Origin: Candidatus Oxydemutatoraceae bacterium
GTDB lineage: Bacteria > Pseudomonadota > Gammaproteobacteria > Poriferisulfidales > Oxydemutatoraceae
Assembly: GCA_965218975.1 (NCBI GenBank)
Contig: OZ244717.1
Coordinates: 192,001 to 256,000, forward strand
DNA length: 64,000 nucleotides
Direction of reading: 5' to 3'
Part shown: positions 7,350 through 53,235 of the stretch, in pieces
Numbering within the stretch: position 1 is the stretch's first letter
Layout of the letters: every line of letters starts with the position of its first letter
The notes under the pieces: model-generated
Databases searched by the model: none
What the model saw: only the letters and a program-made list of their open reading frames with translations
What the model was told of the DNA's origin: nothing
Position numbers and translations under genes: made by a program

Positions 7350-7883
7350 TGTACAGTGCCAGATACATGTGGGAATCACCCGTGATTGAGCAGTGGCTGA
7401 CCTATCCCAAGTGTCCAAAAATGAACGCGCACATTGAGCGCTTCAACCGTACCGTCCAAGAAGATTGTATCGATCACGCGGAAGACCTGCTATTCACTGA
7501 TACGGAAGCATTTGATGACCAGCTATGAAACCGTTTTGTGTTTGTTGCCGGATTTTCGGCGGATTGTGCCGGATTGTCGGCAAAGTGCCTGTCATCCATG
7601 ACGCGACTGGGTTCTGTCAACAAGCTCCAGCCCCGACGTCCTTGTCGGGTCGTTCACCGCTGAAAACCAATTGGTTTTCCGGGCGCGTCTCACCCATGAC
7701 GAGACTTGGTTCTGTCAATGAGCACCAGCCCCGACATCCCTGTTGGGTCGTTCACCGCTGAAAACCGATCGGTTTTCCGGGCGCGTCTCACCCGGCAACG
7801 GACAGAAAGCACCGACCCGAATGTTACTGCCGAACGCTTCCCCAGAAGCTCTTCAAGAATCCCATTTAGGGTGGCATCGTACA
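7350..7883 (+). mobile_element. Internally deleted IS481-like element with both ends and 2 copies of the 98-bp module
   Basis: Left end TGTACAGTGCCAGATACATGTGGGA; right end TCCCATTTAGGGTGGCATCGTACA; core fragment WLTYPKCPKMNAHIERFNRTVQED; modules at 7598-7695 and 7696-7793. Confidence 0.85.
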
Positions 7884-7991
7884 GTAAGTTGTAGGTTTCA
7901 TTGTTTGCTCGTATAATCTAGCATCCTAGTGAAAACCAGCAATGCTAATCGGAGCTACTTTAAATAAAAGGCCTAAAACGAGAAGAAACTC

Positions 7992-8300
7992 ATGTATGCA
8001 GTGATCGTTACCGGCGGGAAACAATACCGGGTCTGTAAAGGTGATGTCATCCGCGTCGAAAAACTACCTGTTGAAAATGCCTCAACAGTGAATTTCGATA
8101 AAGTGCTGATGATCAAAAATGAAGATCAATGTGAGATTGGCGCCCCTTATTTGGAAAATAACCGTGTCACCGGCAGAGTGATTACCCAAATGCGCGGCAA
8201 AAAAATTGATGGAATTAAATTCAAACGGCGCAAAAATTACTTGCGCCGTTACGGACACCGTCAGCATTATACGAGTGTTGAAATTACTGAAATCTGTTAA
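7992..8300 (+). CDS. rplU: 50S ribosomal protein L21
   Basis: MYAVIVTGGKQYRV...FKRRKNY...GHRQ.YT. Confidence 0.98.
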   Translation: MYAVIVTGGKQYRVCKGDVIRVEKLPVENASTVNFDKVLMIKNEDQCEIGAPYLENNRVTGRVITQMRGKKIDGIKFKRRKNYLRRYGHRQHYTSVEITEIC

Positions 8301-8315
8301 TTGAGATAAAGTCGG

Positions 8316-8573
8316 ATGGCACATAAAAAAGCAGGCGGCAGTACTCGGAACGGTCGTGACTCGCATTCTAAGCGGCTTGGGGTGAAAAAATACGGTAACG
8401 AACAGGTGCGTGCCGGTAATATCATTATTCGTCAACATGGTACCCGCTATCATCCCGGTGTAAATGTCGGTTGCGGTAGGGATTACACCTTATTTGCCAA
8501 AGTTGACGGATGCGTTCGATTTGAGCGCAAAGGCTCCCGTCAACGCTATTTTGTCAGCGTCCTCCCTAGATAA
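8316..8573 (+). CDS. rpmA: 50S ribosomal protein L27
   Basis: [23 protein letters not shown]. Confidence 0.98.
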
Positions 8574-8638
8574 TATCTTCTATTTAATCAAGCAAACTGT
8601 TAAAGCCTTGTACCGCTGGCTTGACTGTGGCAATTGGC

Positions 8639-9658
8639 ATGCGGTTTGTTGATGAGGCAACGATTACGGTGCGCGGCGGTGACGGCGGTAACGGATGCGT
8701 GAGTTTTCGGCGTGAGCGTTTTATTCCGCGCGGCGGTCCCGACGGTGGTAATGGCGGTGATGGCGGCAGCATTTATCTGGTCGCGACCGATAGCTTGAAT
8801 ACCTTAGCCGATTTTCGCCATCAGCATTTGTTTGAAGCTGGGAAAGGGAGCAATGGTGCGGGGGGCAATCGTGCCGGTAAAGCCGGTAAAAATCTACGTG
8901 TCCGTGTCCCCGCCGGAACTCTTGTATATAACGATACGGCTGGTGAATTAATTAGCGACCTAGCTCGTACCGGTGAAACATTACTGGTTGCATGCGGCGG
9001 GCAGCATGGTGTTGGCAACGTCTGTTTCAAAAGTTCAACTAACCGTACCCCGCGGCAAAGCACATTCGGCAAACCCGGCGATGAAAGGCGTTTAGCACTG
9101 GAATTACAATTGCTCGCGGATGTCGGTTTAGTCGGATTGCCTAACGCCGGCAAATCTACATTGTTGGGTGGGATGAGCGAATCGCATCCGAAAGTGGCGG
9201 ACTATCCGTTTACCACATTAACTCCCGTGTTGGGAGTCGTCAATATCAACGCATGGCAATCTTTCGTCATGGCGGATTTACCGGGTTTGATTCGAGGCGC
9301 CGCACAAGGATTCGGGCTGGGTACACGCTTTCTGCGTCATATTCGAAGGACACGATTATTGCTTCACTTGGTGGATGTTTCCGACCTACAAAAATCATAT
9401 ACTGATGTACGTATTATTGAGCAAGAGCTCATTGCCGCCGAGGGGAATTTGATGGCTTACCCTCGCTGGTTAGTATGCACTAAAGCGGATACTCATGTAG
9501 GAGCAAAAAAGCAATGCGCCGAACTGGTTACACAGTTAAACTGGCAAGCGCCGATGTTCGTCGTTTCCGCAGTTACGCGACAAGGATTACAAGCGTTACG
9601 ACTTGCAATTATGCAGTTTTTAGACAGCGCCAAAAGTAATGACAGAACAGAAAACTAA
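8639..9658 (+). CDS. obgE: GTPase ObgE/CgtA
   Basis: MRFVDEA, Gly-rich Obg domain, [19 protein letters not shown]. Confidence 0.97.
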
Positions 9659-50899: not shown

Positions 50900-51212
50900 T
50901 TTATAAGGATGACTTGTTTTCCCTAATAGGATATTTAGGTACTCAGTTAATAGAAGTAAACATGAACTACAATTAAGATGCATACGGGTTTGAGTGTACC
51001 AAAGGCTGATAACCAGACAATTCTAAATTGGAAGTATGATATTGAAAATGCTTCTGTGCTATATGGAACACGTATGGGTGATTTGAAAATCCGGTTAATC
51101 ACTACAAGAATGGTAACAGAGGATAGACAGGACTGGCTAACCAAGAATGACTTGTGGGATGTATTAGATTCATACAGGGGTAATCATGTGGGGGATGGGG
51201 GTAAGTAAAAAA

Positions 51213-51779
51213 ATGAGAGTTATTTTGCTGGCCATGGTCATGATGATAGTGATCTTTGTTCTCTCTGCGTGTTACATCACACCTTACATCACACCGGACT
51301 GGCCCCGGTTGAAGGAATTTTCTGAACATCAGGTAAGGTGGAAATCATACGAGACCACGCGCTACCGGATGCGACTTGAGCGAAACTGTTTTTGCGGTGA
51401 AGATTATCTACGGCCACTCATTGTTGAAGTTCAGGTGGGGAAGACGATGGAGTTGCCTGTATACGGCAGTAAAGAATTTTTACAGCCTCGTACAACTGTA
51501 GTCCGAATCGAAGATGTAGAGTCGGCCGTATACGAGGATGATGGAAAGCCAGTCCCTTTGGACGAGCTCCAAAGGATTGCATCAATCGATTCCCTGTTCC
51601 ATAGGATATACATTGCAAGTTTACGGAATCCAAGCCTTACTCAGCGCATCATGGATGACCTGGTACAGGTTGATTACAATGCCGAGTACGGCTACCCAGA
51701 GTTTGTGGTATTTGATTCAGATGCGATGACTGATGCTTACATTAGCTACGATGTTGAACTTTTGGATATAATCCGTTGA
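51213..51779 (+). CDS. Passenger putative lipoprotein (DUF6174-like)
   Basis: Signal ending in the lipobox LSAC; W......Y...LER.CFC, IDSLF, Y...YGYP. Confidence 0.65.
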   Translation: MRVILLAMVMMIVIFVLSACYITPYITPDWPRLKEFSEHQVRWKSYETTRYRMRLERNCFCGEDYLRPLIVEVQVGKTMELPVYGSKEFLQPRTTVVRIEDVESAVYEDDGKPVPLDELQRIASIDSLFHRIYIASLRNPSLTQRIMDDLVQVDYNAEYGYPEFVVFDSDAMTDAYISYDVELLDIIR

Positions 51780-51785
51780 ATAAGT

Positions 51786-52007
51786 ATGGCTATAGGTAAA
51801 TACTTGAGCCTCGAAGAAGCTCGCAAAAAGAATTTGCTGGATCGTTTTGCCAAGGAACATCCATCCGTAGCGGACGGGCGTTTCTGGCCTTTGCTTAATT
51901 CTATAATTAAAGGGAAGCAATCAAGTCAGGAAACATCTGTTCAGGCTTGTCCCGATAGTTGTAGCGAAACTCAAACTCCTTCAGATACTTCCGAAGATGC
52001 TTCTTAG
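51786..52007 (+). CDS. Small passenger ORF overlapping the transposase 3' end
   Basis: 73-aa ORF (KYLSLEEARK...LDRFAKEHPS). Confidence 0.4.
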   Translation: MAIGKYLSLEEARKKNLLDRFAKEHPSVADGRFWPLLNSIIKGKQSSQETSVQACPDSCSETQTPSDTSEDAS

Positions 52008-52764
52008 ACACATGGATATGTGTACCACGAATGCTCAACTTAAGGCGTGCCCAAAAACCTTCAATGCTATTGACATGAGAGCCACCGCTTACCCATTTGC
52101 CAGCACCATGATTGACCCTCTTATGCTCAAACCCTTCTTTGTCCAGCCCGGAGTAAGAACGAAGCTCATCCGTATGGACTGTGCTTCCCTGCTCAACATT
52201 TTCCTTAATGATCGACTGCAAAGTGCGCTTTTTGACGTTCGGAACAATTTTGGTCATTACATCCCCATCCCTGTCCAACATGCCAAAGGCTATAGCCTTG
52301 TTCGGAGCACCGCGACCGCGCTTTCCGCCAGAAGTCTTACCGCCAATATAGGTTTCGTCAGCTTCAACATGCCCGTCAAGAGGGTTTTCACCGTCCGTAT
52401 CAGACATGTGCTCACGTATCTTGTGAGCCATTCTCAAAGCAGTTGGATAGGCAACTCCAAGCTGGCGTTGCAGTTCCAAGGCGGGCACTCCGTGTCTTGT
52501 GGTGGTGAACAAGTAAATAGCATAGAACCACTTCTGCAAGGGGGTATGGGAGTTTTCAAAGATCGTTCCTACCATCGGATGAATTTGATGTCCGCACCAA
52601 GCACACCCATAAGCAGTGTCACGTTTGACTCTGTGAAACTTCCCGTGCTTCCCGCACTTGGGGCAGTCCATAGTCTCCCCATGCTGCTTGTGCATCAGGA
52701 ACTCAAGACAGGCTTCATCATCCGGGAACTGTTTCATAAACTCTTGAATTGTTGTGGGTTTCAT
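51907..52764 (-). CDS. IS1595-family DDE transposase, intact
   Basis: Zn ribbon CPKC..C..C, VEADETY.GG, VHTDE, HVNSIEGFW, YL.EF.FRYN. Confidence 0.95.
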   Translation of the reverse strand: MKPTTIQEFMKQFPDDEACLEFLMHKQHGETMDCPKCGKHGKFHRVKRDTAYGCAWCGHQIHPMVGTIFENSHTPLQKWFYAIYLFTTTRHGVPALELQRQLGVAYPTALRMAHKIREHMSDTDGENPLDGHVEADETYIGGKTSGGKRGRGAPNKAIAFGMLDRDGDVMTKIVPNVKKRTLQSIIKENVEQGSTVHTDELRSYSGLDKEGFEHKRVNHGAGKWVSGGSHVNSIEGFWARLKLSIRGTHIHVSKKHLRKYLKEFEFRYNYRDKPEQMFPDLIASL

Positions 52765-53235
52765 GGTGTATCTCCTATCGTTGAAGAAATATTACCATGA
52801 ATACTTACTTGTGTCAACTATATAATCACGAAACCATTTTGTGTTTGCTGCCGGATTGTCGGCGGATTGTGCCGGATTGTCGGCAAAGTGCCTGTCACCC
52901 ATGACGAGACTTGGTTCTGTCAATAAACCCCAGCCTCGACGTCCTTGTCAGGTCGTTCGCCGCTGAAAAGCAATTGCTTTTCCGGGCGCGGCTCACCCTG
53001 CAAGAATCCCATTTAAGGTGGCATCGTACAAAGTGTAGAGTTTCTCAATCAGTCATTGTACAATGCAAGGTTTATATTCGTGGTCGTACCACGAATAGAA
53101 CATAAAGCACAAGTCCCTATGTTATTATTTCGTTCGTAATGAAGATTGCTGTTTTAGCATATAAATTATTGCTTATACATAACTTCGGCATTACATGATG
53201 CCTCTTTATAAGTACACTGATGCCCGTTTTTTAGG

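Follow-up and report, generated by a model that had tools for sequence, protein, structure and literature searches.

A 98-nt repeat unit, here called the module, is joined by one and the same 3' end to several different positions of a decayed insertion sequence (IS) in the genome of a Candidatus Oxydemutatoraceae bacterium. We analyzed a stretch of 64,000 nt (the window; bases 192001-256000 of one 2.081-Mb contig; G+C 47.7%) and followed the module through the whole genome (completeness 99.4%). The fixed end is where a conserved, structured repeat unit naturally ends on its 3' side, and it is a true hot spot for joining. The joins bear the marks of copy choice without the marks of transposase action, which is the view that we favor.

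The module and its fixed 3' end

The 8-mer at the module end (...TCTCACCC) occurs 20 times in the window, against 1.13 occurrences expected. Using a profile built from 20 window units, an nhmmer search of the whole genome found 321 copies of the 98-nt module, 253 of them aligned end to end. The copies are grouped in 193 arrays, of which 107 have a single unit, 60 have two, 19 have three, and 7 have four to seven. Tandem Repeats Finder placed arrays with a period of 97/98 nt at window positions 7592, 29348, 29816, 44467 and 49516. Each array is preceded by a "leader" of 44-65 nt. Within arrays, one module follows the other directly at 89 joints, with a linker of 9 nt (beginning with TGC) at 29, with a linker of 8 nt at 4, and with an overlap of one base at 3. 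A 6-nt look-alike motif is present before every module start, whether this is the leader tail, the 8/9-nt linker or the end of the preceding module, and the last 12 nt of the leader are similar to the last 12 nt of the module.

The predicted single-strand fold of the module consists of a closing stem (3-8/87-92) and two hairpins (35-41/46-52 and 65-71/76-82), and leaves six unpaired bases at the 3' end. The second hairpin stays paired through double, compensatory changes: among 211 distinct 98-mers, its centre (positions 72/75) is GC in 142 and AT in 52 cases, with few intermediates. Rfam 15 contains no relevant covariance-model match to the module, ribozymes included (E-value up to 10), and a search of the window at the gathering score returned a tRNA only.

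The module side of the junctions is fixed, as the original prediction had claimed. In 166 arrays the terminal module runs to model position 98; in 25 it stops at positions 94-97, and in only 2 within the module (positions 52 and 64), so that 191 of the 193 arrays end within 4 nt and a genome-wide scatter of breakpoints was not seen. The sequences right after the last module of an array form 41 flank classes for the 193 arrays, several being variants of one site and not all independent, with sizes of 55 (A), 28 (D), 25 (B), 15 (C), 11 (E), 8, 8, 3 and 3, five pairs and 27 singletons. The predicted bias to T after the junction is also borne out: the first base past the module is T in 25/41 classes, followed by G in 19/41 and by GC in 15/41, compared with genome frequencies of 6.4% for TG and 2.1% for TGC. 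As the breakpoint is fixed on the module side and non-random on the target side, plain random deletion is excluded, in agreement with the prediction. Several of the TGC classes share their first 3-8 bases with the flank of an older junction (judged by eye), and look like secondary events that reuse these bases. From one and the same module end, nested joins also reach into the right end of the IS, at about +17 (11 arrays), +23, +43, +70 (3 arrays) and +85 nt.

The module belongs to a wider family. Its 3' two-thirds (the 3' 70 nt; window 7626-7695) have homologues among the dispersed repeats of Rhodobacteraceae and of a few other Proteobacteria. Six contigs of Rhodobacterales and Rhizobium contain the exact 22-mer of the 3' end, and the profile matches three of these contigs over 45-65 positions. 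In Rhodobacter sp. SW2, the repeat is a dispersed element of about 130 nt that occurs in 18 places at E-values of at most 1.1e-8. It is often intergenic, and the flanks place several copies within about 10 nt past a stop codon, so that these copies are probably transcribed. In 40 genomes related to that of the window, module DNA was not found, except for one weak match of 38 nt (E-value 8e-4). Relatives of the module were noted at loci L060-L077, L035, L037 and L079-L082. At L080 (918-1543), 6.2 copies of a related 101-nt unit stand in a tandem array that ends at the stop codon of a convergent gene for a Xer-type tyrosine recombinase; we took the position beside this gene as ordinary intergenic placement.

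An alignment of 12 window modules with 16 elements from Rhodobacter sp. SW2 shows a constant order: a conserved run comes first, then hairpin A, a linker that is likewise conserved, hairpin B, and a conserved tail ending in CACCC. The unpaired stretches are conserved and the stems variable across the family, and 6 of 15 predicted pairs keep their pairing through double changes across genomes. A covariance model of the shared core, built from this alignment, was positive in 4 of 150 other genomes sampled across the phylum and in 12 of 40 others from the SW2 family, SW2 itself matching by construction. Across genomes, the similarity ends at CACCC(C) in three other genomes; among the copies of SW2 itself, it runs about 25 nt further. 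Rfam gave nothing relevant for three Rhodobacterales loci (E-value up to 1). On these comparisons, the repeats are a structured family common to distant Proteobacteria and absent from Rfam. No description of the module or of such joins was found in the full-text literature searched, which did not include supplements and does not prove absence.

The module is best read as a structured repeat resembling the repetitive extragenic palindromes (REPs), with one closing stem, two conserved hairpins and relatives in other Proteobacteria. Like REPs and bacterial interspersed mosaic elements (BIMEs), it is a short hairpin unit with high copy number (321 copies) and covarying stems, and as a further likeness, its relatives in Rhodobacter sp. 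SW2 are often located right behind stop codons. Unlike REPs and BIMEs, the module is not extragenic, as 149 of the 193 arrays have IS sequence on either side; it is located within IS copies and not between genes, its units are arranged head to tail and not as head-to-head dimers, and it has 98 nt and three stems versus the 20-40 nt of a REP. The genome also lacks a gene for the REP-associated tyrosine transposase (RAYT) found with some REPs. In the parts of the source that concern them, the CGTC-tagged REPs are described as having no dedicated transposase and as being reiterated in tandem with flanking DNA (PMC3733652). The module shares with the CGTC REPs, as these parts present them, the absence of a dedicated transposase, but its head motif beside hairpin B is not exactly CGTC (PMC3733652). 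The relevant parts of another report describe a transposable element of the miniature inverted-repeat kind (MITE) with an internal minisatellite in Porphyromonas gingivalis (PMC4596501). As far as that account goes, the two cases are alike in that a tandem repeat is housed in a transposon-derived element and spread with it; they differ in that the MITE has a short unit, whereas here a structured 98-nt module is found at four sites of a full IS (PMC4596501).

The host insertion sequence and its joins to the module

The arrays lie within the gene for an rve-type DDE transposase, and nearly all are in decayed copies of a single IS, which we take to be IS481-like. This IS is about 1.1 kb long, and its terminal inverted repeats are imperfect and span about 26 bp. 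Its transposase frames contain the motifs TDGGSEF and ERFNRT, and the native sequence across the junction sites encodes the usual conserved C-terminal region of such transposases. An intact transposase of the host IS was not found in the genome. Only 2 of 8 rve matches were above the Pfam cut-off, and the longest fragment, with 24.4 bits, was under it. All rve frames have at most 246 amino acids, and the longest open frame of the host IS, with just this length, includes module sequence. The nearest relatives of the IS in the species collection have at most 52% protein identity, and the module profile (nhmmer) matched none of the loci L004-L024.

A working reference of 1114 nt, stitched together from four native stretches, matches 349 genomic pieces with a total of 51 kb (BLAST). 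The boundaries of these pieces cluster at the IS ends (start at 1 in 42 pieces, end at 1114 in 73 pieces) and at the junction sites, with starts at 1005 (51 pieces), 778 (26), 374 (25) and 437 (17) and ends at 418 (62) and 982 (35). IS sequence is found within 120 nt on both sides of the 149 arrays mentioned above; 19 arrays have none of the main IS within 1 kb, and some of these sit in a second IS type. A 5-bp direct repeat is kept at 5 of 31 paired IS ends (the copies concerned carry 2-8 modules), and none is present at the other 26.

Comparison of filled and uninterrupted IS copies reveals what happened at the joins. Uninterrupted native sites were found genome-wide for A (6 copies), B (4), C (1) and G (4), and in addition for A at window 60525. 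The uninterrupted sites named in the original prediction, C|TGCACC near 60525, CC|TACGCC at 19304 and C|TGCCC at 19210 (the bar marks the junction), are among those that proved real. The insert replaces native bases, about 22 at A, about 19 at C, about 9 at G, and about 8 or about 37 at two left-join variants of B. A target-site duplication was not seen at these joins.

On the left, the IS passes into the leader at 12 or more IS coordinates, entering leader or module at varied points, and shares 5-14 nt with the leader each time. The native bases in front of the site C leader recur before the leader at site A and to the left of site G, and in at least 11 copies a 45-nt piece of the G/D region has moved with the leader to site B. 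Sequence from the left side of the donor was therefore carried along.

On the right, the joins share 1-5 nt (C, CC, CTG, CCTG). The homology to the module end plus the start of a next module amounts to 3 nt at A, C and G, and to 5 nt at B; right-join homology of at least 3 nt is available at 8.2% of the positions of the IS reference, and of 5 nt at 1.1%. Two of the four native B copies match for one or two bases further. A variant of B with an extra A fits the 98-nt module-to-module joint, and the common form of B fits the 97-nt joint. Short-homology joining is not confined to module ends: a module-free deletion has joined the left inverted repeat to the B segment near window 7400, and one of the module-internal joins shares 7 bases. 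On reading the joins, neither terminal inverted repeats nor a duplication of its own, as expected for a MITE, were seen for the block of leader and module.

A single junction type is common to up to 55 arrays, in which the number of modules (1-6) and the left partners differ. Some IS copies carry all four inserts in colinear order. Others have no IS segment between two arrays, or a repeated 232-nt unit of segment, leader and module, and missing or repeated segments of this kind are the expected product of unequal recombination between arrays. The seven junction types of the window go back to a few old events that were multiplied together with the IS copies. The original prediction of at least seven joined positions was right in that the junction types exist, all of them having been recovered at their places in the window by the genome-wide module search, but it overstated their independence, as each type is common to many IS copies. 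The features of the window are as follows.

7598-7793, + strand: array of 2 modules with a 65-nt leader (7533-7597); ACCC|GGCAAC, class E, at 17 nt within the right end of the IS
11448-11545, - strand: single module; ACCC|TGCACC, class A; next comes the right end of the IS with its inverted repeat
11611-11818, - strand: array of 2 modules; ACCC|GTTTTG onto the next leader, class F
11906-12002, - strand: single module joined to a further leader; the 3' end of a transposase frame precedes
14042-14139, - strand: single module; ACCC|GGCAAC, class E; upstream, the main IS and a second IS481-like relative joined as a mosaic
18405-18502, - strand: single module; right join of class A (TGCACC)
18757-18854, - strand: single module; ACCC|TGACGG, class B, at the DDE motif TDGGSEF
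18855-19470, - strand: uninterrupted IS stretch with native sites G (about 19304) and C (about 19210)
29348-29543, - strand: array of 2 modules; right join of class A (TGCACC)
29821-30016, - strand: array of 2 modules; right join of class B (TGACGG)
30151-30480, - strand: two single modules (30151-30248 and 30383-30480), each ACCC|TACGCC, class G, in a 232-nt tandem unit of IS segment, leader and module
44467-44766, - strand: array of 3 modules, with a 9-nt linker between two; right join of class A (TGCACC)
49509-50190, + strand: array of 7 modules with 97/98-nt period; right join onto TGCCCG, class C
52901-52998, + strand: single module followed by TGCAAG, at about 30 nt from the right tip of the IS
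60380-60640, + strand: strongly decayed IS copy with site A uninterrupted in its sequence (..ATC|TGCACC)

The junction at 52998 is best read as a class A join with a later, further deletion.

Some observations concern other repeated elements and rearrangements. At window 13900-14460 (- strand), the second IS481-like relative, whose N-terminal region is different, is fused to the main IS by an 8-nt stretch that both have in common. Outside the window, at genome positions 149159-153848, units of leader and module with a period of 152 nt lie just inside the ends of a different repeated element, which has inverted ends of its own, and its two arrays are oppositely oriented around 3.3 kb. The same non-IS sequence of about 50 nt adjoins two IS fragments in inverted orientation (window 50445-50500 and 52790-52836), which suggests an inversion of about 2.4 kb between the two fragments.

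How the joins may have arisen

We see about an even chance that the joins are due to template switching, in which synthesis stalled or the DNA broke at the base of the folded module, and that they then spread with the IS copies. Template switching is favored by the homology on both sides, by the replaced target bases, and by the left flank that was carried along. From the anatomy of the joins we infer the switch of the polymerase and the cause of the hot spot, in the following way. A few old events would have put the block of leader and module into the transposase gene, at its sites G/D, C, B and A. The growing DNA strand would have left its template and annealed, via the 5-14 nt of homology, to the leader in another or a sister copy. 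It would have copied the leader and one or more modules, and gone back to the IS a few bases further downstream, by way of 1-5 nt of homology, so that about 9-37 native bases were replaced. The strand would nearly always have returned where a module ends on its 3' side, probably because the foot of the next folded module makes synthesis stall or the DNA break. The resulting types may then have been multiplied by IS transposition and by unequal recombination between arrays at different sites, and further short-homology deletions from the same module boundary may have added junction types.

Hairpin slippage, template switching and microhomology-mediated break-induced replication leave short homology, templated insertions and small target deletions. 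The module joins share with hairpin-associated template switching the short homology at both joins, the templated insertions together with small target deletions, and the breakpoints beside hairpin-forming DNA. Unlike in the usual cases, a single base-precise hot spot is used in dozens of junction types, and is thus sharper.

Several observations do not fit easily with template switching alone. A pure homology search would spread the breakpoints along the module, and yet 191 of 193 arrays end at positions 94-98, so that something specific must mark the module boundary; an enzyme may have nicked it there. Truncated module hits are directional, with 10 at the 5' and 3 at the 3' end (a fixed 3' and a variable 5' boundary), and rolling circle replication or reverse transcription, starting at a defined end, would give the same pattern. 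The excess of TGC (15/41 classes, and the linker start at 29 joints) would be explained equally well by a real target preference. The end of the cross-genome similarity at CACCC(C) in three other genomes is what one would see for the terminus of a true element. Finally, an enzyme that has since been lost stays conceivable, as all events are old and all transposases dead.

These points lead to the competing explanation that deserves the most attention, although we consider it unlikely: a site-specific enzyme (a lost nickase of the HUH or another type, a host topoisomerase, or a hairpin nuclease) cut the module at its 3' end, and the free end was joined, or served as a primer, at C|TG-like sites, in a one-ended transfer with adjacent deletions. 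In addition to the fixed end, the frequency of TG (19/41 classes) and TGC, the stop of similarity in the three other genomes and the look-alike motif before every module start, the nested joins from +17 to +85 into the IS right end have the classical look of adjacent deletions, and the family is patchy and multicopy like mobile elements, occurring in 12 of the 40 other genomes from the family of SW2. In rolling-circle elements of the IS91 type and in replicative transposons, adjacent deletions and one-ended events join one fixed end to serial neighboring positions. The module resembles them in that one fixed end meets many neighboring positions; it differs in that this end is not an IS end, target bases are replaced, there is homology on the left side, and a gene for a matching enzyme was not found.

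The original prediction had named HUH and IS110 enzymes as candidates. The genome contains no match to Y1 HUH transposases (Y1_Tnp; RAYT; the control search was positive) and none to the IS110 DEDD transposase (the control matched in 6 genomes), and this part of the prediction finds no support. A search for Y2 HUH transposases of the IS91 type (Y2_Tnp) was also negative, but says little, as the control matched in no genome. Y1_Tnp was also not matched in Rhodobacter sp. SW2 with its 18 strong copies, nor in genomes G041, G042 and G079; it was present in G126 and G130. Together with the missing reverse transcriptase and the missing intact rve gene, these results argue against an enzyme, and a clean strand transfer does not predict that native bases are replaced and a donor flank is carried along on the left. 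Of the two mechanisms that had been suggested, template switching fits the anatomy, whereas an enzyme-defined one-ended transfer by the named enzymes is unsupported.

A related proposal, which we regard as doubtful, would make the repeats a cross-phylum family of mobile, structured units not described before. Their conserved 3' terminus ...CTCACCC would be a true processing site, joined one-sidedly at C|TG(C). The free end may come from a host or lost enzyme or from the folded strand, and the unit may multiply head to tail and colonize insertion sequences.

It is rather improbable that leader and module are a small non-autonomous transposon, pasted by some transposase into C|TGC-like targets and later decayed. 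TG and TGC are enriched after the module, the same block is found in at least two IS types, and related repeats are dispersed in other genomes, in favor of this reading. On the other hand, terminal inverted repeats were not seen on the block, its left boundary is not fixed, a target duplication was not seen, native bases are lost at every site, and the native flank of site C was carried to other sites. The block also does not qualify as a miniature element of the IS200/IS605 type (palindrome-associated transposable element, PATE), given the absence of Y1_Tnp and the loss of native bases at every site.

Still less probable is a route through RNA, in which a module RNA with a 3' end defined by processing or self-cleavage was copied back by a template-jumping reverse transcriptase. 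Such a route would yield fixed 3' ends, 5' truncations, tandem units and microhomology. It is in line with the 10 hits truncated at the 5' end versus 3 at the 3' end, with the donor flank carried along upstream and by a few bases at most downstream, with the conservation of unpaired stretches and variability of stems across phyla, and with the probable transcription of the SW2 copies close behind stop codons. However, a reverse transcriptase (RVT_1) was not matched in this nearly complete genome (the control matched in 3 genomes), and neither the module nor its relatives matched Rfam at the E-values given above.

An assembly artefact of a repeat-rich genome can practically be dismissed: 321 near-identical units of 98 nt are hard to assemble, but the same junction types are found at dozens of distinct loci with unique flanks, and four independent sequencing runs contain 78-88% of the sampled words of a module-bearing stretch, their contigs breaking at repeats, matching the unique parts, and in some cases including module-containing joints.

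To our knowledge, small hairpin repeats without a dedicated transposase are common. Because many joins are kept here together with the uninterrupted targets, the way such a unit moves can be followed at the level of single bases. The data speak for errors in copying, with a hot spot that is very sharp. If the hot spot is an enzymatic cut, the missing machinery of transposase-less hairpin repeats would be identified; if it is not, the module would be a clean natural case of hairpin-directed template switching that breaks up transposase genes.

Array orientation and neighboring genes

With respect to replication, 123 arrays are co-oriented and 70 are not, and for IS right ends the numbers are 45 versus 31; we draw no inference from these counts. 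At the start of the window lies dnaG-rpoD, and the closest RpoD relative found in the species collection, by a search that recovers only some relatives, is 53% identical. The - strand at window 12771-14117 contains a gene for a Sel1-repeat protein of 448 amino acids, encoded by 108-nt tandem repeats (6.6 copies, 87% matches). Beside dnaG-rpoD, the window also carries a PQQ-dependent alcohol dehydrogenase gene and a molybdopterin oxidoreductase gene (27200-29014 and 53236-56172).

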